This document shows positions 7,039 to 60,915 of a stretch of DNA of 60,915 nucleotides, one piece after another. Under the pieces are notes generated by a model, which saw nothing but the letters and a program-made list of their open reading frames with translations, was not told the DNA's origin and searched no databases. This DNA comes from an uncultured Gammaproteobacteria bacterium (lineage in GTDB: Bacteria; Patescibacteriota; Patescibacteriia; UBA9934). Position numbers and translations under genes: made by a program. Each line of letters opens with the position of its first letter. Within the stretch, counting starts at the first letter, position 1. The DNA is taken from contig CAYNYL010000001.1 in NCBI GenBank assembly GCA_964401485.1, forward strand, positions 2,103-63,017. Direction: 5' to 3'.

Positions 7039-7067
7039 TTGACAAAAAGGCCATTTTCTGCTACTAT
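7039..7067 (+). promoter_or_regulatory. sigma70 promoter for 7151
   Basis: TTGACA-AAAAGGCCATTTTCTGC-TACTAT, 17-nt spacer. Confidence 0.75.
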
Positions 7068-7150
7068 TTCAAGTCATGTTGGCCGGTAATCGGCTAGCAG
7101 ACACAGTTCTATAGACCCCAGAAGCCGCCAAGTGCGGTAAGGAGAAGGCG

Positions 7151-8035: not shown

Positions 8036-8068
8036 CCAATGGTCCGAGCCACCTGACGGCTCAACTAC

Positions 8069-8118
8069 GACCGGTCCTGCAATGCGCAAGCATCTCGCGG
8101 GACCGGTCTTCTGCTTTA
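8069..8118 (+). terminator. Terminator after 8035
   Basis: GACCGGTCCTGC...GCGGGACCGGTC stem with inner ATGC-GCAA-GCAT, then TTCTGCTTT. Confidence 0.7.
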
Positions 8119-8209
8119 CAAAAATGAAAAAATGCATTAGTATTACCCGTCGTACTCTTTAGATCTTCAAATCGGGGCGACATGCCCTTTCAACAAAACG
8201 AGGCTTCAC

Positions 8210-9724: not shown

Positions 9725-9832
9725 CCCCCTGCCCCCGGCCAGCAACAGCTGTGTCCGGGGGCTCATTGCATCTAAAGCCCCCTTGCCAATTTTTTGCCCC
9801 CCTGTTAAGATATTCGCACGGAATTACCAATT

Positions 9833-9909
9833 GGGTCGGTAGTTCAACTGGTTAGAGCACCGCCCTGTCACGGCGGAAGTTGCGGGTTCGAGTCCCGTCC
9901 GACCCGCCA
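9833..9909 (+). tRNA. tRNA-Asp(GTC)
   Basis: Cloverleaf, anticodon loop CT-GTC-AC, encoded CCA; promoter TTGCCA-17-TAAGAT at 9783-9811. Confidence 0.97.
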
Positions 9910-29836: not shown

Positions 29837-31552
29837 TTAGCGGGTATGACAAGCCGTAGCCGTTGCTACACCATCACAGCAGTACGGTTTTGAAGGAGAA
29901 ACCCCACAGGATTCCCCGACAAGCCCCGGACCCTCCGACGGGAAGAAGCAATTTTGATAAAGATCTTGTACCTGATTTGTAACCTCGACCGCGTACGAGT
30001 GCGTTGTCTCAGGAGTCGATTCGAGGAAGACCCCGTGACGAATCGTCACCTGTGTCTTCACCGCCGACGCTCCGGAAGCGATCGCTCCACCCGCATCAAG
30101 CTCTTGTCGCGTCACGTTGTACCAAAGTTCATGATCAGGCGTTGGCGTTAAGAGGATCGAGTCGGAATGCAGGCTCGCACTCGACATCAACCCATCAAAA
30201 ACGATCGTTACCGGCGTATCAAGAAGGGTGTTTTCCGCCCGAATATCCGGAGAAATCGTTTCGATCGTTGGAGCCCCGCTTCGGACCGCGTCCGTCGTTC
30301 TAAACGCGAACAAGTAATCATCTCCCGCAACTCCATCTGCATCCCCGTCAAGCGCATTCCCCGTCATGTCAACGATTCCGTCCGCTGGGAACAAATCTAC
30401 CTGTGGCGGATTCGCTCCAACCGTTCCCGCATGCGCGGTCACCTCAATCGCCGAAGCGCCCGGGAGGCAGAACATCGTGGTTCCACATGCATTCACCCCA
30501 CAAACCGCCGTAGGCCTAAAGCTCACCGTCTTGTATCCGTTTGAAATCTCAAATGTTCCGTCGACCGGGGCTCCCGCGCTCGTCACCGTCAACCCATCAA
30601 ATCCCTCCGCGACAACTCCTGTTGCAGAAAGCGGGTCGATCGGTTCGGAGAAGTGGAACTCAACCGAAATATTCTTGTCATAGCTTCCGCCCGATCTTGG
30701 AAGCACTCCTTCAACCGTCGGAGGCGTCGTATCAAGCGTCGTTCCTACCGTGAAAAACCATCGGTATCCACCTGTCCCCAGAACCTTCTTTCCATCCGCG
30801 CTACGAATCGTATCGCGAAGCACCACCGTATACTGCATATCAGCGGTCGCAGAACCAAGAATCGGAGGCGTGATCGTTACCGTCTTATTTCCCGGCGCCA
30901 TCGCAACCCGGACATCTGTCGCCTTAAGCGCGCTATTCTCACCCTCGCGGGTAACGTAAATTTTTACATTTTCATCGTTCAAGGCCGTGGCACCATTTCC
31001 CGCTTCGTAGCCCTTGATAAACGACGCTGGATCCATTTCATTTGCAAATGTTACGAAGATCTTCGCATTGCGAGGAACATCGGTTGCTCCTCGACTTGGA
31101 TAATGATCCCGAATCGCACGCCCATAAGATCCAGAGTATGGCTCAAGAGACACCCCTCCCGAACCGTTCGAATTTCCGCCCCCACCAAATAGTCCCGACC
31201 CACCCGTCAACGCATTGAAGACAAACGTCGTAATCGCGTAGGAGAGAAGAATAATCGCAAGACCGATGCTTGCCCGAATAATCGTATTTTTCGCAACAAG
31301 AACCTTGTCATCATCGCCTCCCGCCGTCATCCAAAGAAACCCCGCATAAATCATCAATACAAGGAAAATGACCCCGAGGATCGAAAGAAACACGCGAATC
31401 AATCCACCGATAATCTCGGGAAGCGTCGCGTCCCCAAGACCCGCGGAAGAAGCGATATCGGCGAGCCCAAAAGACTGTGCGTGAACCGCCCCTGGAACCA
31501 CAACGACTCCGAGGAGAAAAAGGATCGACGAAAGGACAAGAATTTTCCTCAT
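29837..31552 (-). CDS. Pilin-like N-terminus plus SbsA/Big_5-type Ig domains
   Basis: YAGFLWMTAGGDDDKVLVAKNTI; YPSRGATDVPRNAKIFVTFANEMD; FHFSEPIDP. Confidence 0.85.
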   Translation of the reverse strand: MRKILVLSSILFLLGVVVVPGAVHAQSFGLADIASSAGLGDATLPEIIGGLIRVFLSILGVIFLVLMIYAGFLWMTAGGDDDKVLVAKNTIIRASIGLAIILLSYAITTFVFNALTGGSGLFGGGGNSNGSGGVSLEPYSGSYGRAIRDHYPSRGATDVPRNAKIFVTFANEMDPASFIKGYEAGNGATALNDENVKIYVTREGENSALKATDVRVAMAPGNKTVTITPPILGSATADMQYTVVLRDTIRSADGKKVLGTGGYRWFFTVGTTLDTTPPTVEGVLPRSGGSYDKNISVEFHFSEPIDPLSATGVVAEGFDGLTVTSAGAPVDGTFEISNGYKTVSFRPTAVCGVNACGTTMFCLPGASAIEVTAHAGTVGANPPQVDLFPADGIVDMTGNALDGDADGVAGDDYLFAFRTTDAVRSGAPTIETISPDIRAENTLLDTPVTIVFDGLMSSASLHSDSILLTPTPDHELWYNVTRQELDAGGAIASGASAVKTQVTIRHGVFLESTPETTHSYAVEVTNQVQDLYQNCFFPSEGPGLVGESCGVSPSKPYCCDGVATATACHTR

Positions 31553-31609
31553 AATTGCTCCTATTATAAACCAAAACGCGCAAGTTGCCTTGCGCGTGCT
31601 GTGGACGAC

Positions 31610-34234
31610 TTAGCGCCAAATTCGATACTTCTTTCCCTCTTTTTGATAGCGGAGATCAAATCCGTTCACCGCCTTGCCAAAAGGCATAGAAGAATACATC
31701 GACTCCGGTAAGACCAGTACTTTTTTCCCCCACTCTTTTCCGAAAATTTCCTCCACAAGAGCGGAAGACGCAATAGGCCGAAGAAGGAGCTGGTCAGCAT
31801 CATCAACACCCTCGGACACAACCCGATCAATCAAATAGATCGTATCCCTCCCAGAAAATTGAACGAGAGTCGTTCCGTAGGCCGGAATAAGCGACGATCC
31901 AATCGGAATACCAGCAACCATATCGTCCTCAAGAGTTTGAACGCGAGCACCCCATGTTTTCAATACCTGCTCATTATAGACTGGCCTTCGGGTCATGCTA
32001 TTGTCAATGTAGTAAACATCCGGGAGTGATTTTGAACGGACAAACGCGCCAACAGTAATCGTTTTTTCTCGATCAGCACCTACACCACTTCCAAAAAGAT
32101 CCTCCTCTTGATCCCCCGAAGCGGAACTACAATCCGAAGTATTTTTGAGCGAGACCGTATCAGTCATAGTTGGAGACTGATTGCCGTGGGCCGTTCGCAC
32201 GCGCGCATAGAGCGTGTAGTCTCCTTTTCTTGCCGGAAGAAGATACGTTGAGCGCATGACAGGATAATACCCGGTCCCGATACTTGGATCATCAACCATC
32301 GTCAACGAATTTTCGTCATACCGAGTCCACTGAGCTCCGATAAAATCCGGGTCATCCGAGATCACAACATCGGAAACATACTTTCCCCCAAACTCAACCT
32401 CAATCAAGCGTTCCGAGGAACAACCATCTCCGGAGATTGCAAAGTACGGTCGATTCGGGAATGTTTGGTTGGATTGCGACGGATAGAGCGTCGATCCGTC
32501 GGTTTGTGTATAGGCCGTTTTATTTCCTGCCTCGTCAGAAACGATCACGTTATAGGTATATGTGGTATTTGGCTGAAGTCCCGAGTGTGTATACGTCACA
32601 TCATCCGTTTGCGTCGAAAGGAGGGTTCCATTTGCCTCAATATCAGCAACCGAGTCTAAGTCGGCGCCATCTTCCGCAAAGTACACTTTGTACACGAGCG
32701 CCGATTGTGCGCTCGTTTCATCCGTCGATGCCGTCCAAGAAAGATCGGAGGAGAAAAAGTCTCCATCGACCGTAATCGCTCCCCCACCCCCAACCGTTGG
32801 AGAAGTCGAATCCCCATCCGGTACGCCGTCCATAAACATAACGTAAACCGCCCCCCGACCATTTCCACCATCATCGTCAGGATATACTCCCATCGCAAAA
32901 TCAACGATATCGTCTCCATCCAAATCTCCAATGGCACCAAGGTCTCCGGCACCGACCTGATCGCTCGCGTCTAGCGTAGCGGTAAAATTCCCCGAGGTCC
33001 CCGAGATTTTCGTATACCCGGCACCACTCGCCCCAGCGGTTGCGTCAAGCGTACCATCTGGATCCATGAACAAAACGTAAATCGCTCCTGCGGTACTGTT
33101 TTCGTCATCATCACTAAACGCGCCAACCGCAAGCTCCGGAACACCATCCCCGTTCAAATCTCCAATTGTCGACACAGCGGTCCCAAACCCATCTCCAGCC
33201 TCAAGTGGCCCAGATGGAAACCCTCCGACTCCGATTGCGATTTGCTGGTATGAGGAAATTGTTCCATTCGTATTCAAGAAAAAGACGTACACACATCCAG
33301 CGTTTAAAAGCCCGGTATCGTCGAGATACGCTCCAGCGGCGATTTCGTTTCGCCCGTCTCCATTAAGATCCCCAGCACTTCCGACCGCTACGCCAAATTG
33401 ATCCGAGCCAGTCCCTGCACCCGAAAGTACCCCGGAAAAACCCGTGGTCGTGTCACTAATTTTTGCAAATCCCGTCGTATTATCAAGAGTCCCATCCGCA
33501 TCAAGGAAAAAAATGTAGACCGCGCCCATATCCCCACCGCCATCATCATCATTTGGGGCACCGACGATAAGATCAACTACGCCATCTCCGTTTAAATCCC
33601 CAATCGAGTCAAGATATCCATTTCCGATTCGGTCATTTGCGTCGAGGGTTATCGTCCAGTCCCCAACATCATCAGAAATTTTCGACCATCCAGTTCCACT
33701 CACGCCCGCCGTTGCGTCAAGCGTTCCATCAGAATCGAGGAACAATACGTAAACCGCCCCGCGATTTCCAGCCGCTCCCCCGTCATCGTCCCCAGAAGCT
33801 GATACAGCAATATCCTCAACCCCATCCCCATTCAAATCTCCAAGCGCCGCAACTCCCACACCAAAGTTGTCTGAATCATCAATCACCGCATCAAAACCAC
33901 CATCCGTATCCGAGATTTTTTGATAACTCGCAACCGTTCCATTCGCGTTCATGAACAAAATATAGACCGCTCCGCGATTTGATCCACCATCGTCATCATT
34001 TTTTGCACCAACGACCAAATCAATCACTCCATCGTCATTCAAGTCCCCAATATTCGCAACCGAGGATCCGAAGTTATCACCATCATCAAGTGTCGCCGTA
34101 AACGTTCCGTCCGTGTCCGAAATCTTTTGATACGTCAGCACCTCACCGTCAGCCATGAAGGCAAAACGCCCAACGGTAAATACAAATACTGCCACCAACA
34201 AGGGTCCGAAAATTCCAGACAGAATTTTCCTCAT
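31610..34234 (-). CDS. FG-GAP/integrin-alpha-like repeat protein with FN3 and CPR surface module
   Basis: Six GDL(N/D)GDG..D/E...G repeats; LSWTASTD...LQPNTTYTYNV FN3; VRSKSLPDVYYI module. Confidence 0.85.
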   Translation of the reverse strand: MRKILSGIFGPLLVAVFVFTVGRFAFMADGEVLTYQKISDTDGTFTATLDDGDNFGSSVANIGDLNDDGVIDLVVGAKNDDDGGSNRGAVYILFMNANGTVASYQKISDTDGGFDAVIDDSDNFGVGVAALGDLNGDGVEDIAVSASGDDDGGAAGNRGAVYVLFLDSDGTLDATAGVSGTGWSKISDDVGDWTITLDANDRIGNGYLDSIGDLNGDGVVDLIVGAPNDDDGGGDMGAVYIFFLDADGTLDNTTGFAKISDTTTGFSGVLSGAGTGSDQFGVAVGSAGDLNGDGRNEIAAGAYLDDTGLLNAGCVYVFFLNTNGTISSYQQIAIGVGGFPSGPLEAGDGFGTAVSTIGDLNGDGVPELAVGAFSDDDENSTAGAIYVLFMDPDGTLDATAGASGAGYTKISGTSGNFTATLDASDQVGAGDLGAIGDLDGDDIVDFAMGVYPDDDGGNGRGAVYVMFMDGVPDGDSTSPTVGGGGAITVDGDFFSSDLSWTASTDETSAQSALVYKVYFAEDGADLDSVADIEANGTLLSTQTDDVTYTHSGLQPNTTYTYNVIVSDEAGNKTAYTQTDGSTLYPSQSNQTFPNRPYFAISGDGCSSERLIEVEFGGKYVSDVVISDDPDFIGAQWTRYDENSLTMVDDPSIGTGYYPVMRSTYLLPARKGDYTLYARVRTAHGNQSPTMTDTVSLKNTSDCSSASGDQEEDLFGSGVGADREKTITVGAFVRSKSLPDVYYIDNSMTRRPVYNEQVLKTWGARVQTLEDDMVAGIPIGSSLIPAYGTTLVQFSGRDTIYLIDRVVSEGVDDADQLLLRPIASSALVEEIFGKEWGKKVLVLPESMYSSMPFGKAVNGFDLRYQKEGKKYRIWR

Positions 34235-34287
34235 ACGACAAGTAGTATAGCAAAAGCCAGCCCTTTCGAGCTGGCGTTATGCACATC

Positions 34288-36906
34288 CTACATCTTTAGA
34301 TCGGCACGATATTGCTTCACTGTCTTTAGGAGCGACGGATTGACCGTAAGGTCACTCGCCTGATCGACAATCTCTCCCATTGTAAGTCCGCTCAATTGTT
34401 CCGCATCAACTTGAATCACGAAGTTTGTTCTCCACTTCGCTCCGAAAATACTCGCAATCACCGCCTCGCTTGCAAATGGACGAAGCGTCGGGCGTGCAAC
34501 ATTTCCCGAGGAGCCATCGATCCAGTAGTACACCCCGGAAGCGTATAAAATCAATGTTCCCGGCTTTGGTAGTACATATTCTTCCCCAAGAGGCATCTGT
34601 CGGATCGAGGCGCGTTCGAGCGAATCAATTTGTGAAACCGGCTCCCAGGTCTGCATTACAAGCGCGGAAAGAACTCGATACGCCTCAGACCCGTCTTCAG
34701 CGATGTAGAAATATTGATTTCCATTGTTCATTCTTACAAATTCGCCGTAGTGGGCAACAAGCTCCGCTGTCCGCGTTGAGAATACTCCAGCCCTGTAAAT
34801 CACTTTATTCCCCGCCTGATCCCGAGCAACGACAACGATTGGATACTCGGTATTTACTTGCAACCCAGTTAATTCAAACGAGGTCACACCAGTAACCGTC
34901 GAAATGAGCGCGGCATTAGTCGCGACACGTGGCAATGTGTTAATCGGTAGATTTCCAGTCGGCTTGTAGATGTCATAGCTTATTTGAGATGCCTGTGACA
35001 CGTCATCCGTCGCCTCAACCCACGAAAGGCCAATCGTCGTTTCACCAACACTCACAGCCTTAATCACACGATCGGAAAGAGTCGGAGCAACCCGATCGAC
35101 AACCGCCTCGGTCGACTGCGTAAGTTGCGAATAAATCGATTTGGTCAAATCATTGTCGCGCACAATAACGGCAAACCGATACTCCGTTCCCGGCTGAAGA
35201 CCTGACACTATTTTCGAGGTGATACCGGACTGAGGTGCCCCAGCGGAAATTCCGTTCGTTTCCGCTGCCAAAACCGTCGAAAGGTCATTTGAAGAGACAG
35301 CATAGCGCACTTCATACACGAGTTGGTCAGAAGGAGTCGTGTCATCGGTAGCCGGCGACCAAGAAATCGTAACTGAATTTGACCCAACTGCGGATGATTG
35401 CAATGTTCCCGAACCAGGAACAGAAGGAGGAACAGGGAGCGGAGCACCGCCGCCGCCCGACCCTCCGGAACCACTTCCACCAGAACCCGACGATCCACAC
35501 GTCGCCTCCCCGTCAAGGAAGAGAACGTACGCCGATCCACGACCATTACCCCCATCGTCATCCGCATGCGCCCCCGCTAAAAGATCGCAAATCCCGTCCC
35601 CGTTCAAGTCGCCAAAACCTGAAAGCGCAGACCCAAAGAAATCTGTATCATCAAGTGGTGCCGTAAAGTTTCCAGCGGTATCAGAAATTTTTTGATACGA
35701 GGAGACCGTTCCATCCGAATTCATCATCGCGACATAGATTGCCCCGCGATTCGTTCCTCCATCATCGTCGCTTTGTGCGCCAATCGCAAGATCCGGAACT
35801 CCGTTATTATCCAAATCTCCAACTTTTGTAACAGCCACCCCGGCAAAGTCTCCCGCATCAAGCGTCGGATAAATATTCGTGTAATGATCGATCGTGCCGT
35901 CGGTATTTAGGAAGAAGATGAACGCTGATCCTGCATTAACGGCAGGGGCATCTTCAAGATACGCGCCGACCGCAAGCTCATTCACTCCATCGCCGTCGAG
36001 ATCACCAACGTTCGCGACGGAAACTCCGAACTGATCCGCACCCGTGCCGGCACCTGAGAGCGCCCCGACAAACCCCGTCGTCGTATCGCTTATCTTCACT
36101 TCAGAGTCAACCGTTCCGTCCGTATTCATGAACAAAATGTAAACGGCACCCAAATCCAGTCCGCCATCATCATCATTTTGCACTCCAACCGCAAGATCGA
36201 TCGTTCCATCTCCATCGACGTCCCCCATGTTTGCCACCGACATTCCGAATAGATCCTGGTTATCTAGAGTGCCGCCAAATCCGCCGTCCGTATCCGAAAT
36301 CTTTTGATAGGACGCGACCGTCCCATCCGTGTTCATAAATAGAATATAGAGCGCACCACGATCAACTCCGCCATCATCGTCTCCAGTTGCACCAACCGCG
36401 ATATCGATCACTCCGTCACTATTCAGGTCTCCGATGCCTGCAATTGCCATTGCGGAAAATCGATCATTATCATCAAGCGTCGCGGTAAATCCGCCTTCCG
36501 TATCAGAAATCTTTTGATAGGACGCGACCGTCCCATCCGTGTTCATGAATAGAATATAGACCGCCCCACGATTCGCTCCCCCATCATCGTCACCCCGCGC
36601 CCCAAGGGCGATATCAGCAACGCCATCCTCGTTCAAATCGCCAATGACGCTCACGGCGTGACCAAGATTGTCGGTATCATCGAGCGTCGCGGTAAATCCG
36701 CCTTCCGTATCAGAAATCTTTTGATAAGACAAAACCTCACCGTTTGCTTGAAGCGCAATTCCCCACGAGATGACAAACGCAACAACCGCGGCAACCGCGG
36801 TCATTCCAAGGACCATGCCCGGCGAGAACGGAGAGAATCGAACCGTTTCTTTTTTCCTTAACGATTTACCCGATTTCTTTTTCGCCGCCGACCGTGTTTT
36901 TTTCAT
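34288..36906 (-). CDS. FG-GAP repeat protein with two FN3 domains and CPR surface module
   Basis: Six FG-GAP-like repeats; ISWSPATDD...LQPGTEY; LSWVEATDD...LQVNTEY. Confidence 0.85.
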   Translation of the reverse strand: MKKTRSAAKKKSGKSLRKKETVRFSPFSPGMVLGMTAVAAVVAFVISWGIALQANGEVLSYQKISDTEGGFTATLDDTDNLGHAVSVIGDLNEDGVADIALGARGDDDGGANRGAVYILFMNTDGTVASYQKISDTEGGFTATLDDNDRFSAMAIAGIGDLNSDGVIDIAVGATGDDDGGVDRGALYILFMNTDGTVASYQKISDTDGGFGGTLDNQDLFGMSVANMGDVDGDGTIDLAVGVQNDDDGGLDLGAVYILFMNTDGTVDSEVKISDTTTGFVGALSGAGTGADQFGVSVANVGDLDGDGVNELAVGAYLEDAPAVNAGSAFIFFLNTDGTIDHYTNIYPTLDAGDFAGVAVTKVGDLDNNGVPDLAIGAQSDDDGGTNRGAIYVAMMNSDGTVSSYQKISDTAGNFTAPLDDTDFFGSALSGFGDLNGDGICDLLAGAHADDDGGNGRGSAYVLFLDGEATCGSSGSGGSGSGGSGGGGAPLPVPPSVPGSGTLQSSAVGSNSVTISWSPATDDTTPSDQLVYEVRYAVSSNDLSTVLAAETNGISAGAPQSGITSKIVSGLQPGTEYRFAVIVRDNDLTKSIYSQLTQSTEAVVDRVAPTLSDRVIKAVSVGETTIGLSWVEATDDVSQASQISYDIYKPTGNLPINTLPRVATNAALISTVTGVTSFELTGLQVNTEYPIVVVARDQAGNKVIYRAGVFSTRTAELVAHYGEFVRMNNGNQYFYIAEDGSEAYRVLSALVMQTWEPVSQIDSLERASIRQMPLGEEYVLPKPGTLILYASGVYYWIDGSSGNVARPTLRPFASEAVIASIFGAKWRTNFVIQVDAEQLSGLTMGEIVDQASDLTVNPSLLKTVKQYRADLKM

Positions 36907-52790: not shown

Positions 52791-52866
52791 ACACAGAAGG
52801 GTAAAGAATTATTAGCCAAAGTATACCAAAATTTGACCAAAAGCCAAAAATCCCGTATAGTCCGCC

Positions 52867-52943
52867 TGCGGGGTAGAGCAGCCCGGTAGCTCGTCTGGCT
52901 CATAACCAGAAGGTCATTGGTTCAAATCCAATCCCCGCAACCA
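52867..52943 (+). tRNA. tRNA-Met(CAT), initiator type
   Basis: Cloverleaf, CAT anticodon, A11:U24, T-loop TTCAAAT, encoded CCA; promoter TTGACC-17-TATAGT upstream. Confidence 0.95.
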
Positions 52944-52948
52944 AAAAT

Positions 52949-52976
52949 CCGTCTATGGAACTATAGGCGGTTTTTT
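52949..52976 (+). terminator. Terminator after tRNA-Met
   Basis: CCGTCTAT-GGAACT-ATAGGCGG-TTTTTT. Confidence 0.8.
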
Positions 52977-53033
52977 GTTTGGTTTGCGGTTTTAATATAT
53001 GGCTTGTTTTAGCCATTTTTATAGCATTTTCCA

Positions 53034-53062
53034 TTGACAAAAGCCGTTTTTTATGCTATAGT
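53034..53062 (+). promoter_or_regulatory. sigma70 promoter
   Basis: TTGACA-AAAGCCGTTTTTTATGC-TATAGT. Confidence 0.8.
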
Positions 53063-53109
53063 AATTCTCCGTTCTTTGGGGCTCATCCCAAGACGGACCG
53101 GAGGACATT

Positions 53110-53223
53110 ATGTCCAAGTACGCCCCGACCTCCGCCGGCCTTTCGACCAACACCAACTTCGGGGCGATCCTCGTGATCGCCCTGTACCTCGACGGGTTCC
53201 TGACCGGCACCTTGCCGTTCTGA
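53110..53223 (+). CDS. 37-aa hydrophobic peptide (not in ORF track)
   Basis: MSKYAPTSAGLSTNTNFGAILVIALYLDGFLTGTLPF*; GGAGG SD; nearly all codons end in G/C. Confidence 0.7.
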   Translation: MSKYAPTSAGLSTNTNFGAILVIALYLDGFLTGTLPF

Positions 53224-53267
53224 ACCGTCGCCTCGTCGGCAGTCCCTGAAAAGACATGCCGGCGAGC

Positions 53268-53306
53268 CCCTCAATGCGCATGAACCAAGTTCGTGCTTAT
53301 CGAGGG
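53268..53306. repeat. Structured repeat, copy 1
   Basis: CTCAATGCGCATGA-ACCAAGT-TCGTGCTTATCGAG. Confidence 0.85.
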
Positions 53307-53357
53307 ACCTTTCCCAAATCAACCCCAGCGCCGCTTTGCGCGGCAACGGAGGCCACC

Positions 53358-54245
53358 ATGGCCCGTTCGAACATCATCAGCCTCTCCCTCGCCGCCACCC
53401 TCTTCGGGGGTTGCGACCCCGCGGATGTGTACAACATCACCGTGGAGAGCGACGAGGCTGACACGTTCGTCGACATCGACGTCACGGTGACCCCGGCGTC
53501 CGAGGAGACCGAGAGCGACTGCGAGCCGTTCGTGCATGAGCACAGCGGCGTGCGGTTCAACACCGCGTCGCGCCCGACCGTCGAGTTCAACTCGACCCTG
53601 ACGGGCTTCGCGACCGACATCGGAGATTCGCTGGACATCGGCGGCGCCTTCCACACGGTCGGCGGATGCGGAGAAGGGGTCACGATCGAACAGATCGCGA
53701 TCAACATCCGCAACCTCGAGAGCGTCGACCTCCTGACCTCGACCGTGGCGACCGTCGTGATCGACGGGCACAGGATGAGCGTCGAATGCACGCCCGTGAC
53801 CTACCCCGACGGTCTTGTCGAGTACTGGTGCATCATGGATCTCTCCGTCCAAGACGGCGAGTTCGATGTCCTGCCCAACTCGAACGGCGTCCCGTTCCAG
53901 CTGGTCCTCGACGAGCTCCCCGAGCTCAAGAGCGGCGAGCAGTCGACGGTGACCCTCTACTACAAGTGGAGCGACATCGAGACCGGGAATGGGTACGTAG
54001 ACGGCGGCGGATGGGCCGTGATCGACAGCGACAGCTTCGTGATCGACCCCTACTACGCCGACGAGTGGTGCTACACTCGCGAGCGTCGCCTCGCGGACAA
54101 CGACGGCGACACCTACGGGGATCCGAACAACTACCTGTTCGTCGCCGTGTGCGATCCGTGGCAGGACGGCTACGTGGACTGGACCGAGGGTCGTGACGAC
54201 TGCGACGACAACAACGCGGACGTCTACCCCGGCAACGGTTGCTGA
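53358..54245 (+). CDS. Lipoprotein with C-terminal MopE-like putative metal-binding motif
   Basis: Lipobox FGG-C; DNDGDTYGDP; DDCDDNNADVYPGNGC; SD GGAGG. Confidence 0.8.
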   Translation: MARSNIISLSLAATLFGGCDPADVYNITVESDEADTFVDIDVTVTPASEETESDCEPFVHEHSGVRFNTASRPTVEFNSTLTGFATDIGDSLDIGGAFHTVGGCGEGVTIEQIAINIRNLESVDLLTSTVATVVIDGHRMSVECTPVTYPDGLVEYWCIMDLSVQDGEFDVLPNSNGVPFQLVLDELPELKSGEQSTVTLYYKWSDIETGNGYVDGGGWAVIDSDSFVIDPYYADEWCYTRERRLADNDGDTYGDPNNYLFVAVCDPWQDGYVDWTEGRDDCDDNNADVYPGNGC

Positions 54246-54308
54246 CACTGTCGTAGCGACAGCTTCGCTACACCGACCGCTGGCCATGCAACGTGCATGG
54301 TCGGCGGG

Positions 54309-54348
54309 TCACTCAATGCGCATGACAATGGTCGTGCCTATCGAGTGA
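54309..54348. repeat. Structured repeat, copy 2
   Basis: CTCAATGCGCATGA-CAATGG-TCGTGCCTATCGAG, followed by a long T run. Confidence 0.85.
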
Positions 54349-54375
54349 TTTTTTATTTTTCATGGCATTTTTGGC

Positions 54376-54404
54376 TTGACAAAAGCCCATTTTTCCAGTA
54401 ATAT
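54376..54404 (+). promoter_or_regulatory. sigma70 promoter for 54454
   Basis: TTGACA-AAAGCCCATTTTTCCAG-TAATAT. Confidence 0.7.
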
Positions 54405-54453
54405 GCTCGGTTGCGTTTTTGCAACCCCAGCCTTAAATGGCTATGGAGTTCCT

Positions 54454-55170
54454 ATGTTCCGCACCCCCGCCACCGTTGTCGTGGCGTTCGCCCTTTCGGC
54501 CTGCACCGCTCCCGTCGTCCCCGAGGACGACTCGGCGAGCGAGACGGGCGGATTCGAGGACACCGACCCGGTCGAGCCCCTCCCCGAGGACCCGATCGTC
54601 GTCACCGTCGCCCTATCCTTCATCCCCCTCCCCGACGGCGTCACCTACGCGCGCCAAGGGGAGCCGGCGCCGCTCGGCGGGATCGACATCGCGGTCGAGC
54701 CGACCGACACCCGTGTGATCTTCGAACGGATCGCACCGAAGATCGCGCTTGCGATCGAGGAGTGGCTAGAGATTCCCTCCGCCTTCTCGACCGATCCGAC
54801 GATCCCGAATCGTGACCGTCTCGTCGGCGAGTGCACCCTGCAGGATCTGTGGGGTACAGTCTACGGGGGACCGGTCGGGATCGAAGGCTGGGACCTCACC
54901 TTCAACGACGGCTTCGTTGTCTACGGAGGTGAATCGATCACCTTCTCCACTGCGTGCACCCCGCCCGACGGTACGAACCCGTACCCCTTCGCCTTCGGGA
55001 TCGATCTCCCGATCGAAGAAGACGGCGAGATCGAGGCGTACGCGGAAGACAAGGAGGGCAACCGGCTCGAACTCCAGTTCGAGTACCGAAACATGAACGG
55101 GCTCCCCTACCCGTCCTCGTACGTGCTCCTCCCGTACGACCTCGGCTGGCCGGGCGATTCGCCAAACTGA
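54454..55170 (+). CDS. Lipoprotein of unknown function
   Basis: MFRTPATVVVAFALSA-C lipobox; acidic linker; beta-rich domain. Confidence 0.8.
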   Translation: MFRTPATVVVAFALSACTAPVVPEDDSASETGGFEDTDPVEPLPEDPIVVTVALSFIPLPDGVTYARQGEPAPLGGIDIAVEPTDTRVIFERIAPKIALAIEEWLEIPSAFSTDPTIPNRDRLVGECTLQDLWGTVYGGPVGIEGWDLTFNDGFVVYGGESITFSTACTPPDGTNPYPFAFGIDLPIEEDGEIEAYAEDKEGNRLELQFEYRNMNGLPYPSSYVLLPYDLGWPGDSPN

Positions 55171-55300
55171 TCGCCCGAGCGCGCTGCCCCGGCATCCCCT
55201 GAAAAGGATGACCGGGGCATTTGAATTTCGAGCTGGTACTTGCAAAAAGTGCTATAATAGCGTAAGATACGGTACTGTTCCTTCAACCTTGGAGACCCGA

Positions 55301-56104
55301 ATGCTTTGGCTCATTCTCGTTGCCTGTTCGATACCGAACGTCGAGACCGCGGAGTACAACCCGCCCCACGTCGTCGTCGACAAGGCTTCGGAAACGATGC
55401 CCTTCGTCGAGGACTACCCGCCATGGGAAGACACGGGAGTCGATAGCGACACCGAGGTCGACTCGGATACCGCAATCGATACCAGTGGCGACACCGGCCT
55501 CGACTCAGACACGGAAATCGACTCGGACGTCGACAGCGACACCGAAGTCGCCCCTCCGTCGGCTTCCCTCTCCCTGCGCTTCCTCCCGTCGGAGGAACGA
55601 AGCATCGAGTGGACGTCGTACGGCGACATCGCCGATCACGGCACGGTCGTCGTCGAAGCGAACCTGAGCGAAGGAGCTCGAATCGCGCTGACCGAAATCG
55701 CGATCCCGCGATTCATCGGCACCTCGAGCCCCGCGACCTACGAAGGGGATCCCGTCTACGACGACGCGGGCGAGTACACCTGCGCCCTCGTCGACGAGGA
55801 CGGAAACTCGGTCGGAAGACGCTCCGCGTCAACGAACTACGGCGTGAACCTCGTGTTCACGTCGAGCTCAACCCGACTCCTGACGCTCCGTTGCGAAACA
55901 CGGATCGTCGCCTTCGCCCCTCGCTCGAGCGCGATCGACCTCCCGACCTCACTCGTCGCCACCGCGACGGTGGACGGGGAAGTGATCCCGCTCACGCTCT
56001 CCTACGCCGAGCATAACATCAACTCCGGCACGGCGACCTACGCGGTCTCCGTGATCCCGGAGCCTCTCGGAGGCTATGATACCGGCGCCGATACCGGCTT
56101 CTAG
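55301..56104 (+). CDS. Lipoprotein with Asp/Ser/Thr repeat linker
   Basis: MLWLILVA-C; DTGVDSDTEVDSDTAIDTSGDTGLDSDTEIDSDVDSDTEV; extended -10 TGC-TATAAT at 55250-55258. Confidence 0.78.
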   Translation: MLWLILVACSIPNVETAEYNPPHVVVDKASETMPFVEDYPPWEDTGVDSDTEVDSDTAIDTSGDTGLDSDTEIDSDVDSDTEVAPPSASLSLRFLPSEERSIEWTSYGDIADHGTVVVEANLSEGARIALTEIAIPRFIGTSSPATYEGDPVYDDAGEYTCALVDEDGNSVGRRSASTNYGVNLVFTSSSTRLLTLRCETRIVAFAPRSSAIDLPTSLVATATVDGEVIPLTLSYAEHNINSGTATYAVSVIPEPLGGYDTGADTGF

Positions 56105-56203
56105 CCAACTGCCCCACCCCTCAAAAGGTGGGGCGCTTTGTTTACAAAAAATCGCTATTGGTGTATCATGGTCCATCGCTCCTTCCCCAACCCCGAGGTT
56201 CTA

Positions 56204-56821
56204 ATGATACTTCTAATCGGGCTTCTGTCCGGTTGCTATCAATTCCACCTGCCGGAAGTCAACATTCCTTCCGAACCAGGCAAGCTCGTTCTTGTGGAAG
56301 CTCGTTTTTCCGAGGGTGAATTCGGCCGAACAGCGAATGGCCTCTACGACTTTGGGGTCATGACCTTCAAGATCATGACCGAAGAAGACATCACGGTTGC
56401 TATCTCCGGAATCACCCTCCTTGTCGAACGGCGCGACCACAACGGCTCGGGAGCATTTATCCCGTCCCACGCGAACGACTTCTTCGACGAATGCGGACTC
56501 TACGAGTACGGAACGGTGACCCCCGCCTTCGTTGGAGAAGCCGGTCCCTATGCGGTCGGCTTCCATGGACGCCTCGATGGGCTCACGAACAACACCGAGG
56601 TTTCACTCCGAATCTTGTGCTCCCTAGAGGACGGCGAACCCGGCAAGGAGGCCGACCTCGCCTTCGACTTGCCCCTCGAATCCGGGATCCTCCTCTCTGC
56701 AGTGCGAGACGACGGAACGGCGATCGATCGACTGTCCTCGATCACGTACCTCCCCGTGATCACGAACCTGCCCTCGGTTGGCTGGGCCGTTCACTTCCCA
56801 CCGGCCCCACCTACCTACTAA
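56204..56821 (+). CDS. Lipoprotein of unknown function
   Basis: MILLIGLLSG-C; promoter TTTACA-17-TATCAT at 56141-56169. Confidence 0.75.
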   Translation: MILLIGLLSGCYQFHLPEVNIPSEPGKLVLVEARFSEGEFGRTANGLYDFGVMTFKIMTEEDITVAISGITLLVERRDHNGSGAFIPSHANDFFDECGLYEYGTVTPAFVGEAGPYAVGFHGRLDGLTNNTEVSLRILCSLEDGEPGKEADLAFDLPLESGILLSAVRDDGTAIDRLSSITYLPVITNLPSVGWAVHFPPAPPTY

Positions 56822-56936
56822 CCGCCTCCGTCAGGACGCTTCCCAGAAGCCGCCTCTTCACCGCCTTGACCCAACGAGGCGGTCTTCTTTTTGCCAAAAT
56901 TCCACCTACGCGCTAGGCTAAAAACAGGAGGTGTTC

Positions 56937-57245
56937 ATGTCACCCTACGTTAGCCTCGCCGAACTTCGCGAAGACTTGCTCGTGCGCGTAAAGCCCGACA
57001 CATCCCTCTTCGAGCTGATCGAGTACCTGTTCGAAACCGAAGATGGCGGGATCGTTCTCCGCCTCGACTTCGTTCGCGACCACCCGGGAGCCTTCTCCCG
57101 GTTCGCGAAGTACATGATGGTCCTTCGCCGGTCGACCTACACGGTCACAACCGCTCTCGTCGAGTACCGCTCCCCGAACCCGCCGCACAACTGGATCGAG
57201 GAGGACGGCGACGCGACGGTCGCGTTCTACATCATGCGCTCGTAA
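56937..57245 (+). CDS. Hypothetical cytoplasmic protein
   Basis: SD AGGAGG 5 nt before ATG; promoter TTGCCA-17-TAGGCT at 56891-56919; terminators on both sides ending GGCGGTCTTCTTTTT. Confidence 0.7.
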   Translation: MSPYVSLAELREDLLVRVKPDTSLFELIEYLFETEDGGIVLRLDFVRDHPGAFSRFAKYMMVLRRSTYTVTTALVEYRSPNPPHNWIEEDGDATVAFYIMRS

Positions 57246-57346
57246 TGCGCCCCTGACCCCAACTACCGCCTCGCTTGTGGCCAACGCCACTCCAGAAGAT
57301 CGCCATTCGCATCTTCCGCCAACAACAAAGCAGGGCGGTCTTCTTT

Positions 57347-58072
57347 TTACATAACATTGCCCCGCTCCTTTACATACAAACAAAACGCACACCCCTCCCC
57401 CGCCTCCGGCAAAACCCCGCCCTCGAGCACCCCCTTAATCTCCAAAATCCTCCCCGCGACCCATGAATCATCCCCATCATACGCAATCACCCGCACGTCA
57501 AATTCAAGCTTCCCGTTAAACGCCTCCTCGTCCGGCCTCCCCGTACAATAGACAAAATACGCCCGATCGCTAACCGGAAGCCCGTTCCCCCGAAGAAGCC
57601 ACTGATACACCTCGATCTGCCGTTTGTACGCCCCGTGCCACTCGCTATCAAGCGCCGTAACCGGCTCCCCCTTCGCCGTCGCCTTATAATCAACAACGAT
57701 ATACCGCCCGTCCTCCCCAATCCATAAATCATCAATCGCCCCCGAAACAACAAGCCCCGTCGCCTCGTCCCGTACCTCCACCCCTTCGAAATTCTCCCGC
57801 CAACGGTTAAGAAGCTCGTGCCTAGCCGGCACCGCCGCGACTCCGTAGGCTTCCTGGAGCGGATGTGCTGTCCCGTTCGCCCGATGGACGTCAAATTCGG
57901 CCTTTAAAAGCGAGTCAACGGCTTTGTTAAGGTTAAACGGTGGTCCCGACGGTCGTTTTACTCCAAGGACATTGTCGAGATAGAAACATCTCCGGCATTC
58001 CCCGAAGAGCTCAATCTTCGACCTCGACAGCCTCCACCTCGCTCCTCCATAATTCCAATTTGCACTGCGCAT
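57347..58072 (-). CDS. PD-(D/E)XK nuclease, RecB/Cas4-like, with four conserved Cys
   Basis: LSRSKI...CRRCFY, GAIDDLW, VVDYKAT, QIEVY, CAFC. Confidence 0.88.
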   Translation of the reverse strand: MRSANWNYGGARWRLSRSKIELFGECRRCFYLDNVLGVKRPSGPPFNLNKAVDSLLKAEFDVHRANGTAHPLQEAYGVAAVPARHELLNRWRENFEGVEVRDEATGLVVSGAIDDLWIGEDGRYIVVDYKATAKGEPVTALDSEWHGAYKRQIEVYQWLLRGNGLPVSDRAYFVYCTGRPDEEAFNGKLEFDVRVIAYDGDDSWVAGRILEIKGVLEGGVLPEAGEGCAFCLYVKERGNVM

Positions 58073-58115
58073 AGTACGGTTAGTGTACCATCCTTTTCAT
58101 GCTAAAATCCGAGCT

Positions 58116-58376
58116 ATGCGCCTTATCGACAAAAAAGACACCGTCTTCCGGTATCTAAAATCCCTCCCCAAGGGCAAAACCGTGACCTACAAGGAGGTCG
58201 CCCTCGCCTGCGGTCTTTCGAGCCCCCGCCATGTCGGCCATATCCTCCAAATGAACGAAGACCCCGACCTCGTCCCGTGCTACAAAGTCATCCTCTCATC
58301 CGGCCATCTCGCCCGCGGCTACAAATTCGGCGGCCCCGAGGAACAAGCGCGGAGGTTGAGGGAGGATCAAAAATAA
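58116..58376 (+). CDS. MGMT family DNA alkyltransferase (C-terminal domain only)
   Basis: GKTVTYKEVA, PRHVG, VPCYKVI (PCHRV-like), GYKFGG. Confidence 0.88.
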   Translation: MRLIDKKDTVFRYLKSLPKGKTVTYKEVALACGLSSPRHVGHILQMNEDPDLVPCYKVILSSGHLARGYKFGGPEEQARRLREDQK

Positions 58377-58433
58377 AGGTCATAAAAAAGTCATTTTCAG
58401 AACGCGGAATTCGTGCTAAATTCCGAAATGCAT

Positions 58434-58806
58434 TCGAACTTTAACAAGGTCGGCGAAAATGGTCGGGGCCCTTTTAAATTTCACGCTTGGATCAGCCTAG
58501 CTCCAAATCTCCCCCAAGGACGCTTTTAAGAGCTTCCTTGGAGGGGATTTCTTGGAGCAAGTCCCCGAGTATTAATTCATTAGCTCCCCAATACCACTAT
58601 GTCTTATTTTAAGATATACCGGGATCATGCGCTACAATACCGTTGGTCGCTTTACGCGGCAAACAGGGAAATCGTAGCCACAAGCGAAGCATACACTACC
58701 AGGTGGAGTGCTAAGCGATCCGCGGAACGTGTCAAGCAAATCGCATCAAGCGCTTTCATTAGCGAATAGTGCGATTTCACCCTTCGCCGACCTTATTAAA
58801 GCTCGA
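58434..58806. repeat. 24-bp inverted repeats (58434-58457 and 58783-58806) bracketing a hairpin and a YegP-like ORF
   Basis: TCGAACTTTAACAAGGTCGGCGAA versus reverse complement TCGAGCTTTAATAAGGTCGGCGAA: 22/24 identical. Confidence 0.85.
58599..58769 (+). CDS. YegP/DUF1508 family protein, single domain, 56 aa (not in ORF track)
   Basis: MSYFKIYRDHALQYRWSLYAANREIVATSEAYTTRWSAKRSAERVKQIASSAFISE*; matches the F.I..D....YRW.L.A.N.EI.A.SE.Y pattern. Confidence 0.88.
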   Translation: MSYFKIYRDHALQYRWSLYAANREIVATSEAYTTRWSAKRSAERVKQIASSAFISE

Positions 58807-58922
58807 CTACTCGTCCTAAGCAATATAGCCCGTATTTCATGCTACAGATTTAAATGCAAAACTTGCGTACCAATCATCTTAAAGACTAATTCTCTGTTTA
58901 AAATTAAAACGCTACGAAACCA

Positions 58923-59447
58923 CTACTCAACCTTGACGTAGCTTGCACGCAATTTGTTTACCAGCTCCAGCATAGCGGCAAATGACGATTCAGCCTTCGG
59001 CAAAAAAAGTTCACCTCGCGCCTTGGAAAGATGCAAAGTATTTCTAATCCCCTGTAATTCAGCTATTTCCTTAGTTAACTTACTACCTAAGAATTTCTCC
59101 TGTTTTTTAATCATATCCTGTAACCAAATACGCGACTCTTGTTTCTTTTTAGATGACCGATATGCAATTATTAAATCTTGTTTTTGTTTTTTAAACTCGC
59201 TCGGCAAAACTTGAAGGTGCCTATATTGCACATCTTCGTGCACGATGTTTTCTCGTCGTGTTCGGAACAAGAGGAGCGCTTCGATTACGGAGACATTGTA
59301 CAGGATGATCGTTCGAACGGTTTCATCTTTAAATTCATCATCGATGCTTTGTGCTAGCATCCAGAGAAAGCCCGCGAACTTAACCGACTCGATAATATTA
59401 TACCGAAGTGCCTTTGGGGTAATAAACGCAAAGGCGTCTCTTTCCAT
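58923..59447 (-). CDS. Hypothetical protein, possible HEPN-like RNase
   Basis: Helical; SVIEALL early and IRNTLH near the C-terminus; low GC. Confidence 0.55.
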   Translation of the reverse strand: MERDAFAFITPKALRYNIIESVKFAGFLWMLAQSIDDEFKDETVRTIILYNVSVIEALLLFRTRRENIVHEDVQYRHLQVLPSEFKKQKQDLIIAYRSSKKKQESRIWLQDMIKKQEKFLGSKLTKEIAELQGIRNTLHLSKARGELFLPKAESSFAAMLELVNKLRASYVKVE

Positions 59448-59450
59448 AAA

Positions 59451-59645
59451 TTATTTTGATCGACTTGTTTCGATCATCTGTATAAGCTTCGAGAGTGAGG
59501 GCGCACCTTCATTTCGTAACACGGTCGACAATTTAGCATCACCGCGGTAACCCAAATCAATCTTGTACTGTTTTTCAATAGTTTTAACCAACGTGTCACC
59601 ACGCTTCTTTTGAATTCGGCCGTTTTTTGCTCGTGATGCAGGCAT
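59451..59645 (-). CDS. Small basic protein, 64 aa
   Basis: MPASRAKNGRIQKKRGDTLVKTIEKQYKIDLGYRGDAKLSTVL; in operon with the RM genes. Confidence 0.75.
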   Translation of the reverse strand: MPASRAKNGRIQKKRGDTLVKTIEKQYKIDLGYRGDAKLSTVLRNEGAPSLSKLIQMIETSRSK

Positions 59646-59672
59646 ACTTAAAGTGTATATAACGAGAGCAGC

Positions 59673-60593
59673 TTAGTCCAATAATAAATCCACAAACTTC
59701 ACCGCTCGATTCTTTTCCCAATCCATTATCTTCACATAACGACCATTATGTTTGCGGGGGCGCCGACACTTACAACCCTCGCACTCATATTTTTCTATTC
59801 GATCCGGCAGTTCACCGAAAAGCGTTAGTGCACCAGGAATTATTTTACTTTCGTGATGACAGCTCATTGGAATCACGCACCGCACACCATCCATCTGAAA
59901 AATATTCCAACTAATAATCTCAGCGAACTCTTCTCGTACGCCCACTGTTGGCTTTTGATTAAATTTTGCTTCGTAGTAATCAATTAGCGTATAGAGCAAG
60001 TTTTCACGGGCGATGAGTACGTTATCGCCTTGCCATTCATATCCATAACTCGCTTTGTATGCTTCTTTTGCCCACGTCAGCCAGTCTTTTTTATTGTCGC
60101 AGTAACGAGAGACAACTTTGAGTTTACGATCTAAAAAACCAACCCTACTTGGAATACTAATCAGTACACCGTGAGCAGTAGGGTTATAGCGGGTGACTAT
60201 AAAAGGTGCTTCGCCACAGGTAATTTCAAGCTTAAGTTCACGTACGTAGTCCCGCCAGTTATTTTTGTTTGGCTGGTACGGCTCAAGGGCTTTGTTCATT
60301 TGTTCAACAGTCTTGAGTGGAGTGAACACTTCGGCTTTTTCTTTAGTGCGATGACGTTGCTCCTCTAGACTCTTTGCGGCACGGGGTTGAATCAGAAGAC
60401 GGTACTTCCCTGTTACAAGATCTGGCTTGATGTATTTGTCTGGAGCAAATGCTTTTCCGAATTTCTCATAGGAATCAGTTGCCCAGATGATGTTCTTTTT
60501 TGTGGTGCGGTCGACTAGTAAAGTATCAAGTAAGACACCCTGACGGCGGAGGGTGCTTTCTTTAATATCGATATCATACGGAGCCGCCACCAT
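59673..60593 (-). CDS. Restriction-modification accessory subunit (methylase-like, no NPPY motif)
   Basis: LLVDRTTKKNIIWAT, AEVFTP, LEITCGEAPF, YGYEWQGDNVLIAREN, IISWNIFQMDG. Confidence 0.8.
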   Translation of the reverse strand: MVAAPYDIDIKESTLRRQGVLLDTLLVDRTTKKNIIWATDSYEKFGKAFAPDKYIKPDLVTGKYRLLIQPRAAKSLEEQRHRTKEKAEVFTPLKTVEQMNKALEPYQPNKNNWRDYVRELKLEITCGEAPFIVTRYNPTAHGVLISIPSRVGFLDRKLKVVSRYCDNKKDWLTWAKEAYKASYGYEWQGDNVLIARENLLYTLIDYYEAKFNQKPTVGVREEFAEIISWNIFQMDGVRCVIPMSCHHESKIIPGALTLFGELPDRIEKYECEGCKCRRPRKHNGRYVKIMDWEKNRAVKFVDLLLD

Positions 60594-60596
60594 AGC

Positions 60597-60915
60597 TTAA
60601 GACATCGGCTTCACATTCTTTTCGATGAAGTCTATTTCGGCTTTATCGAGCCCGTACTTTTTGTATAGTTGCTTATCAATCTCAGCAACTGACTTGGACC
60701 AATCAATATCTGACTTCTTTGTGAAGTCCTGTAGGGGTACATTTTTCCATGTCCCCTTCGGGTTATCTTGTGTGACTTTTAATGTTCCTAACATAGCTCT
60801 ACAGAACTTCGTTTTGATATATTTGAGACAACTATGGGCTTCACCTTCTGTAGCAAAAGAACCAATCTGCAAAAATGAGTATGTACAACCCGTAAGGGGT
60901 TCTCCCGTAAGGGGT
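60597..60915 (-). CDS. C-terminus of an Eco57I-like (type IIG-related) RM methyltransferase, 5' end outside window
   Basis: LKYIKTKFCRAMLGTLKVTQDNP...VPLQDF...IDKQLYKKYGL..EIDFIE; frame open to the window edge. Confidence 0.85.
   Translation of the reverse strand, partial: PLTGEPLTGCTYSFLQIGSFATEGEAHSCLKYIKTKFCRAMLGTLKVTQDNPKGTWKNVPLQDFTKKSDIDWSKSVAEIDKQLYKKYGLDKAEIDFIEKNVKPMS

Follow-up and report, generated by a model that had tools for sequence, protein, structure and literature searches.

Two near-identical imperfect hairpins bracket one lipoprotein gene, here called lipoA, in contig CAYNYL010000001.1 of a bacterium from wastewater and activated-sludge metagenomes, and they raise the question of whether they serve at the DNA level, as sites for the movement of gene cassettes, or at the RNA level, as part of a transcript. 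We analyzed the 60,915-nucleotide (nt) stretch that holds them (positions 2,103 to 63,017 of the contig; hereafter the window), for which an initial annotation had put forward a single-strand recombination site, with a conserved RNA element as the alternative. The RNA element proved to be the better fit. We propose that the hairpin is an intercistronic mRNA stem-loop within a conserved spacer of approximately 110 nt that also supplies homology for cassette exchange, an interpretation that we consider evenly poised between right and wrong.

Copy 1 (53268-53306, plus strand) consists of the arm CTCAATGCGCATGA (53270-53283), the loop ACCAAGT and the arm TCGTGCTTATCGAG (53291-53304), closed by the outer pairs CC/GG. 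Copy 2 (54309-54348, same strand) has its arms at 54312-54325 and 54332-54345 (TCGTGCCTATCGAG), the loop CAATGG and the outer pairs TCA/TGA. The two have in common the arms CTCAATGCGCATGA and TCGTGC(T/C)TATCGAG, differ in loop length (7 nt in copy 1 versus 6 nt in copy 2), and carry mismatches at the same two positions, namely position 4 (A.C in both) and position 8 (C.T in copy 1, C.C in copy 2). All of this agrees with the initial annotation, as does the presence of another GC-rich hairpin immediately 5' of each copy, which we find to fold at 53232-53266 and 54277-54307. Folded alone as RNA, copy 1 reaches -20.9 kcal/mol (z -6.0) and copy 2 -21.2 kcal/mol (z -4.2).

A covariance model, one of the checks that had been suggested, was made from four hairpin copies and run over the entire window with filters off. 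It scored copy 1 at 74.4 bits (E 2e-19) and copy 2 at 65.1 bits (E 1e-16), versus 11.5 bits (E 0.5) for the best other match. A plain 14-mer test is weak, with 8 of 100 shuffles giving at least two matches at two mismatches or fewer. We also considered as a family member the hairpin at 8072-8105 (8069-8108 in the annotation), which does contain, at 8080, the 9-mer CAATGCGCA that had been noted there, but it scores 8.6 bits (E 3.5) and is an ordinary terminator unrelated to the pair.

Conservation of the hairpin across strains

Related strains were available as the Logan contigs L007, L010 and L011, reached by protein look-ups. Together with the window, these four strains hold eight distinct copies of the hairpin, all of them sense-oriented and placed between cistrons of one family of tRNA-Met-linked lipoprotein loci, to which all nine contexts seen belong. 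Every copy is preceded by a GC-rich hairpin ending CGGCG(A/G)G; seven of the eight are followed by a 5' untranslated region (UTR) and a ribosome-binding site (approximately 55 nt, conserved in six) and carry no U-tract, and a T-run stands only after window copy 2. The situation of two local copies with no conservation elsewhere, which the annotation had named as the one that would speak against it, is thus not what we see, given eight copies with compensatory changes in four strains. The hairpin pair are real copies of a conserved structured repeat, neither a chance resemblance nor a purely local duplication.

In the core stem, 22 of the 28 positions are invariant and 94% of the stem cells are paired over the eight copies. 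One pair occurs as GC (4), AU (2) or UG (1) and another as GU or GC, and sliding the 3' partner by 1-3 columns makes the pairing fall from 85% to 20-47%. All eight copies have the A.C mismatch at position 4, which bears out one half of the conserved mismatches described earlier; the other half does not hold throughout, the second mismatch being unpaired in six copies but displaced by one position in L011 copy 1 and replaced by a pair in L011 copy 2. Covariation of the outer pairs had also been pointed out, and it is real within the window (CC/GG versus TCA/TGA), but three relatives have TCA opposite GGA, so that an A.G mismatch precedes 2-3 pairs. The covariation counts for less than it seems to, since comparison of the relatives indicates that the 5' and 3' flanks belong to different neighboring modules. 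All copies adopt the same RNA shape, at energies of -14 to -23 kcal/mol and z-scores of -2.9 to -6.0; folded as single-stranded DNA, either strand forms a weak hairpin, with -5 to -9 kcal/mol and z from -1 to -3. We rejected the possibility that the hairpin is translated: although some copies can be read in frame, the loop of L007_B contains a stop and L011 copy 2 falls out of frame.

The loop measures 4, 6 or 7 nt and its sequence varies freely, also between copies of one genome; together with the invariant stem positions, this suits a folded strand and not a duplex site of fixed spacing. It bears directly on the idea of a double-stranded DNA palindrome recognized by a dimeric protein, be it a Xer/dif-like core site, as in integrative mobile elements exploiting Xer (IMEX) or the pdif modules of Acinetobacter, or a transcription-factor operator. 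Two inverted arms of approximately 14 nt around a short spacer would fit such a site, as would direct repeats that flank dispensable DNA in the manner of Xer-exploiting islands, and the inner arm GCGCATGA bears an apparent resemblance to the XerC arm GCGCATAA of E. coli dif. Nevertheless, a Xer/dif-like site would call for two arms of about 11 bp around a spacer of fixed length (6-8 bp) common to partner sites, and a spacer of variable length and sequence argues against fixed-geometry dimer binding and against strand exchange over a homologous overlap. The window encodes no recombinase and the element sits between cistrons, not at a promoter, and we hold this explanation to be very unlikely.

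The placement of the copies also speaks against a dispersed repeat, of the repetitive extragenic palindrome (REP) or miniature inverted-repeat transposable element (MITE) type, two copies of which would have fallen into the window by chance. The hairpin is indeed a short, imperfect and intergenic palindrome downstream of stop codons. However, both copies in the 61 kb lie in one operon, and the nine contexts are those of a single locus family. No other contig of the source run X1, in which this contig is covered approximately 11x, matches either copy at 80% likeness, so that the search for further copies as dispersed sites, another suggested check, ended with the two found by the covariance model. 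There was no true match among 185,579 species genomes (GTDB), JGI metagenomes and IMG/VR, collections from which the lineage itself is absent; exact-pattern scans for the hairpin core returned chance matches only, inside coding sequence of a Gemmatimonadetes and a Bacteroidales genome, and viral-contig scans with the hairpin and with the UTR patterns returned nothing. This explanation is largely refuted and, to us, barely credible.

No promoter is predicted between copy 1 and lipoA, and co-transcription of lipoA with the small open reading frame (ORF) upstream of copy 1 is therefore expected. Judged by its sequence, the hairpin qualifies as a candidate intercistronic RNA processing or stability element, in that it is a conserved and covarying structure between cistrons predicted to share a transcript, with its strand assigned from orientation and not from energy. 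An intrinsic terminator is formed by window copy 2 only, and by none of the other seven copies. The element is absent from Rfam and we found no description of it in the literature: at the gathering threshold Rfam reports only the transfer-messenger RNA (tmRNA) and two tRNAs in the window, and at E<=10 nothing that overlaps either hairpin in 52900-54500.

Gene content and breakpoints between strains

Alignment of the copies revealed that the repeated unit is a spacer of approximately 110 nt, larger than the hairpin alone. It starts with TGCATGGTCGGCGGGTCA, the 3' half of the GC hairpin, or with GCCGGCGAGCCC after the small ORF, and runs through the hairpin into the C/A-rich GGACCTTTCCCAAAT(C/T)(A/C)ACCC, a small hairpin (GCCGC/GCGGC, with CCGGC/GCCGG instead before the gene lipoC) and finally ACGGAGGCCACCATGGCC. 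The same 5'UTR stands ahead of three different genes, orf125, lipoA and lipoB, and across unrelated cassettes conservation reaches approximately 55 nt downstream of the hairpin and 17 nt upstream. The spacer is 78-93% identical while lipoA has diverged to 58% amino acid (aa) identity.

The set of genes between hairpins differs in every strain, and to this extent the cassette idea of the initial annotation was right: genes between and after the copies vary from strain to strain in cassette-like fashion. L007 carries, in order, a GC hairpin, hairpin A, the same UTR, the extra gene orf125 (125 aa, which matched only itself in a protein search), a second GC hairpin, hairpin B, again the same UTR, a lipoA homologue (the one at 58% aa identity) and a GC hairpin, where the contig ends. 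In L010, tRNA-Met, promoter, a 39-aa ORF, hairpin and UTR lead to lipoB (421 aa), which is followed by the same 3'UTR module as lipoA and by a hairpin; a diverged UTR then precedes lipoC, behind which lie an ordinary terminator and the promoter of a 238-aa lipoprotein that matches the window gene at 54454-55170. L011 has a hairpin before its lipoC homologue and a further one between two lipoprotein genes (221 and 232 aa) of a separate operon. In contigs of other runs (X9, X10, X12, X14, X18 and X19), lipoB is followed by the same 3' module, the hairpin and a T-run; in X5, 806 nt lie between hairpin and promoter.

The breakpoints of these differences could be placed by blastn against L010, which gave three blocks: window 52886-53495 with L010 1-605 (88% identity), 54242-54345 with 1739-1845 (85%), and 54352-55390 with 2683-3720 (94.5%). 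lipoB shares only its first ~55 residues with lipoA, and the breakpoints of the lipoA/lipoB swap, at window 53495 (~55 codons into the gene) and 54242 (stop codon/3'UTR, also given as 17 nt past the stop), both lie off the hairpin. The window, X9 and X10 lack the lipoC cassette (L010 1846-2682); this indel is bounded on the left by the final base of the hairpin core and on the right by the T-run that belongs to the lipoC terminator, which is why window copy 2 adjoins a T-run. In both L010 and L011, lipoC ends with an ordinary terminator and without the hairpin. The edge of the orf125 indel falls inside the ~110-nt direct repeat and is thus not placeable. Window copy 1 is a mosaic, with a left part like L007 copy A and a right part like copy B, which is what recombination between direct repeats should produce. 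In L011 copy 1, the left arm is of type 2 and the right arm of type 1.

The lipoA gene is itself a mosaic when compared to L007 632-1537, with nucleotide identity of 100% over 53399-53443 and 96% over 54180-54224, and 44-67% through most of the middle. This pattern suggests that the mature protein is under diversifying selection or has repeatedly exchanged segments. We considered and rejected the target of a diversity-generating retroelement: neither a reverse transcriptase nor a template repeat occurs in the window, and the mature protein is divergent along its entire length, not in a variable C-terminal region.

Could the hairpin itself direct these exchanges? The initial annotation had likened it to attC and to IS200/IS605 ends; in this scenario, extended to REP ends, a recombinase encoded elsewhere would excise and insert lipoprotein cassettes at a single-strand DNA site. 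Direct repeats with a variable loop, an invariant mismatch and an invariant sequence at the foot of the hairpin are in keeping with it, and so are the strain-specific gene sets, with orf125 extra in L007 and lipoC in L010 beginning at the last base of the hairpin core. A promoter-proximal array of promoterless cassettes recalls integrons, and the chimeric arms of L011 copy 1 could be read in the same way. The features that define attC are, however, missing: all eight copies lack R'' (RYYYAAC) and R' (GTTRRRY) boxes, the foot being CTCAATG...ATCGAG with no AAC/GTT pair at either end, the irregularities are symmetric 1x1 mismatches and not extrahelical bases, the length is only 35-41 nt, and the single-stranded DNA fold is weak on both strands.

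The genetic context does not favor a single-strand site either. Neither an integrase (IntI, Phage_integrase-type) nor a Y1/HUH transposase or RAYT was found among ~40 Pfam-scanned window ORFs (61 kb), and no Y1_Tnp or HUH among the called genes of L001 and L008, which cover the flanks, so that the proposed check for such a gene came back empty within this range. Only two copies exist in the window and no other contig of the source metagenome carries the hairpin; copy-to-copy joints were not found in contigs of run X1. Conservation extends beyond the hairpin on both sides (~55 nt downstream, 17 nt upstream), lipoA and lipoB were exchanged at points away from it, and lipoC ends in an ordinary terminator. 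We consider the single-strand site quite unlikely. The same degree of doubt applies to the hairpin as the site of a new hairpin-directed system, located outside the window, that would shuffle lipoprotein cassettes behind one promoter in an integron-like manner, at a site unrelated to attC and with no IntI nearby.

Conservation could also be a passive matter, if the hairpin were a functionless former terminator stem, carried along with the spacer during gene duplication or insertion and kept alike by gene conversion and short divergence. Since copy 2 works as a terminator, the internal copies could be decayed ones; moreover, the flanks are 88-94% identical in nucleotides between strains and orthologous hairpins ~94%, which is not far higher, and independent compensatory events are few. 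On the other hand, paralogous copies keep the hairpin amid unrelated immediate flanks, as in window copy 1 versus copy 2 and in L011 copy 2, which belongs to another operon and has a shortened UTR. Loop positions vary freely where stem positions do not, changes at the stem center retain pairing (GC, AU, UG), and the spacer is far better preserved (78-93%) than lipoA (58% aa identity). We regard a terminator relic as unlikely.

The intercistronic stem-loop would account for these observations as follows. The operon (promoter at 53034, 37-aa ORF, lipoA) would be made as one RNA, given that the internal copies lack a U-tract and are not followed by a promoter. Within it, the GC hairpin and the conserved hairpin would as a pair mark a processing or stability boundary, at which the upstream cistron would close with a protective 3' hairpin and the downstream one open with a protective 5' hairpin beside an open ribosome-loading region. 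A nuclease or an RNA-binding protein would probably recognize the invariant outer stem CTCAATG/ATCGAG and its A.C mismatch, and the copy at the operon end, with UUUUUUAUUUUU behind it, would act as an intrinsic terminator. The spacer, the signal-peptide codons and the 3'UTR module, which unlike the parts that code for the mature proteins are conserved, would constitute portable homology through which ordinary homologous recombination could swap, add and delete lipoprotein genes between strains; the cassette-like look would then arise without a dedicated recombinase.

Several points weigh against this proposal. The RNA evidence amounts to one 241-nt contig inside lipoA, from a single metatranscriptome run. 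The antisense RNA hairpin is approximately as stable as the sense one, and more stable in three of six copies; we therefore discarded G-U pairs as a marker of the sense strand, and since folding energy does not select a strand, we infer the sense strand from position and orientation. Independent covariation events are few, because the AU/GC variant is common to L007_B and L010_2, and the lack of an Rfam match means that there is no precedent family. In addition, the outer stem, whose sequence is invariant, might just as well be recognized at the DNA level, and a lipoC indel that starts at the last base of the hairpin core is also explained by a hairpin-directed event.

Layout of the operon and its surroundings

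Both hairpins stand at the start of a 61% GC stretch (53000-58000) that encodes lipoproteins without known family and lies directly after tRNA-Met (52867-52943). The predicted operon promoter (53034-53062; this and all further features of the operon are on the plus strand) is sigma-70-like, with TTGACA, a 17-nt spacer and TATAGT (11 of 12 consensus matches), and is conserved in L010. It sits in an AT-rich stretch just past the tRNA, and its motif TTGACAAAAGCC recurs at 54376. The first cistron is a small hydrophobic ORF of 37 aa, MSKYAPTSAGLSTNTNFGAILVIALYLDGFLTGTLPF (53110-53223), which is called as a gene in contigs L001, L002 and L009 and has no Pfam match; an exact-sequence look-up found it in the source samples only. 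L010 has the 39-aa homologue at the same place (L010 225-344). This ORF of 37-39 aa is always the first cistron, and between strains its C-terminal 27 residues are near-identical while the N-terminus differs.

The GC-rich hairpin after the small ORF (53232-53266) has no U-tract, ends CGGCGAG directly before copy 1 and is conserved in L007 and L010. Copy 1 occupies an internal position, with homologous copies in L007, L010 and runs X10 and X21, and leads into the conserved 5'UTR (53307-53357). Within this UTR are GGACCTTTCCCAAATCAACCC, a small hairpin (GCCGC at 53330-53334, GCGGC at 53340-53344) and a ribosome-binding site, GGAGG (53348-53352), with CCACC directly ahead of the ATG. The small hairpin covaries, with changes on both sides in three of its five pairs. 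The start region GGAGGCCACCATGGCC (53349-53363; same place in L007 and L010) holds a palindrome, GGCCAccaTGGCC, which RNAalifold pairs across the start codon in all three internal copies and which may be a local hairpin for translational control.

lipoA (53358-54245) encodes a predicted lipoprotein of 295 aa whose signal peptide ends in LFGGC and which belongs to no known family and has no Pfam match. A metatranscriptome contig of 241 nt is 100% identical to 53391-53631, so that the gene is transcribed or at least represented in an RNA library. Its C-terminus carries the motif DNDGDxYGD...DCDD...PG (54195-54233), a putative metal-binding motif of the MopE-like type. Many unrelated high-depth contigs (depth up to 217) match D.DGD.YGD...DCDD.N....PG in every sludge metagenome and in the metatranscriptome, and the motif therefore looks like a very widespread short protein motif.

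Downstream of lipoA, the 3'UTR module (54253-54307) combines a small hairpin (54253-54271) with the GC-rich hairpin (54277-54307) ending GGTCGGCGGG, and it is also present behind the unrelated lipoB, both in L010 and in runs X9, X10, X12, X14, X18 and X19. Copy 2 comes next, in terminal position, and here a 158-nt stretch (54263-54420) is identical in X14 and differs by 3 letters in X9, X12 and X19, where it lies downstream of a different gene. The 17-bp stem of copy 2 (54309-54348) is followed at the operon end by UUUUUUAUUUUU; with the T-run TTTTTTATTTTT (54349-54360), which aligns with the T-run of the lipoC terminator of L010, it makes an intrinsic terminator, although a simple terminator scanner did not list it. 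A separate promoter (54376-54404) is predicted to serve the next lipoprotein gene (54454-55170), which places the end of the hairpin-punctuated operon here.

The window as a whole has a GC content of ~50% and carries housekeeping genes for IF3, SmpB and tmRNA, FtsA/FtsZ, NrdR, pyruvate kinase, HisRS, TopA, RelA/SpoT, ParAB and DprA. Together with a T4SS_pilin-domain protein, this gene set suggests a small-genome, Patescibacteria-like organism. The T4SS_pilin/Big_5 protein lies in a region (21115-29835 and 29837-36906, both minus strand) with a 2906-aa ORF before it and two ~870-aa FG-GAP/fn3 proteins, which looks like a large surface-protein cluster typical of small-genome, episymbiont-like bacteria.

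Within the 53000-58000 block, at least five genes encode lipoproteins or secreted proteins without known family (53358, 54454, 55301, 56204 and 56937), and most genes have their own AT-rich promoter of the TTGACAAAAGCC type and a terminator with the loop CC(T)GAAAAGG or CCTCAAAAGG. The block showed no integrase and no delimiting direct repeat of a tRNA end; specifically, a repeat of the tRNA-Met 3' end that would delimit an integrated island was not found in 52800-60915. At its far end are genes for a PD-(D/E)XK nuclease (57347-58072, minus strand) and an MGMT-type DNA-binding domain (58116-58376, plus strand), and just past the window (L001 7713-11361) is a 1331-aa Eco57I/ResIII/T5orf172 restriction-type protein. 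A second GC-rich block (6060-9780, 58-66% GC) ends at tRNA-Asp (9833-9909) and may be another variable island beside a tRNA. It contains two ORFs without Pfam match (7151-8035 and 8210-9724), a HAD/S6PP-like hydrolase (6098-6943, minus strand) and, at 7039, a promoter of the same style, TTGACAAAAAGG.

The locus is a compact natural modular operon in which a structured spacer of ~110 nt is reused between unrelated coding sequences, and wastewater-plant strains from many studies carry different lipoprotein genes in the same slots. Comparison of the encoded proteins indicates that these presumed surface lipoproteins diversify fast: lipoA is 58% identical in aa to its L007 homologue, and the mature domains of lipoA and lipoB are unrelated to each other. 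This points to host, phage or partner-interaction pressure. If the hairpin acts as an RNA processing or stability signal, it would be an unrecorded cis-regulatory RNA from a poorly studied lineage, and a non-coding 'punctuation' that doubles as homology for swaps of surface-protein genes; if it were a recombination site, it would represent a new cassette system.

Comparison with known systems

Integron attC sites are 57-141 nt long, with extrahelical bases and an unpaired central spacer, and clusters of attC sites lacking integron-integrases (CALIN) are defined as at least two attC within 4 kb that pass the attC model, with no integrase. The present locus resembles them in its directly repeated imperfect hairpins with variable loops, its promoterless genes behind one promoter and its strain-variable content. 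It differs from them in the lack of R''/R' or L''/L' boxes and of extrahelical bases, in a hairpin length of 35-41 nt and in having no intI nearby; furthermore, conservation reaches well into each 'cassette', the last gene, lipoC, has no hairpin, and lipoA/lipoB were exchanged at breakpoints off the hairpin. IS200/IS605 ends and REP/RAYT systems likewise have short imperfect palindromes in direct orientation that are readable on one strand. Here, in contrast, no TnpA, Y1 or RAYT was found, no flanking cleavage tetranucleotide was identified, and the hairpins are not dispersed and bracket ordinary operon genes.

Another comparison is with the vlp, vsp and vsa loci of Mycoplasma, variable surface-lipoprotein loci with conserved 5' regions. 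As in these, a conserved 5'UTR and lipoprotein signal peptide stand before unrelated or divergent mature regions, and gene number varies by strain. Unlike these, the genes here are predicted to be co-transcribed and are separated by a structured spacer, with no invertible promoters, homopolymer tracts or dedicated sites for a site-specific recombinase. With regard to Rho-independent terminators, copy 2 is alike in its 17-bp stem followed by UUUUUUAUUUUU, whereas the other seven of the eight copies are unlike, having no U-tract and an RBS and gene next.

Known intercistronic mRNA stem-loops include the RNase III sites of the phage T7 early region, the REP stabilizer between malE and malF of E. 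coli and the puf hairpins of Rhodobacter. RNase III substrates typically have a longer stem than the 16-17 bp, interrupted by two 1x1 mismatches, seen here; the present locus also departs from these systems in that a whole spacer is conserved, including the 3' GC hairpin and the 5'UTR, and in that genes are swapped between strains. What it shares with them is the recurrence of near-identical, imperfect sense hairpins with internal mismatches between cistrons predicted to lie on one transcript, where the known ones set processing or stability boundaries, and a terminal copy that can end the transcript.

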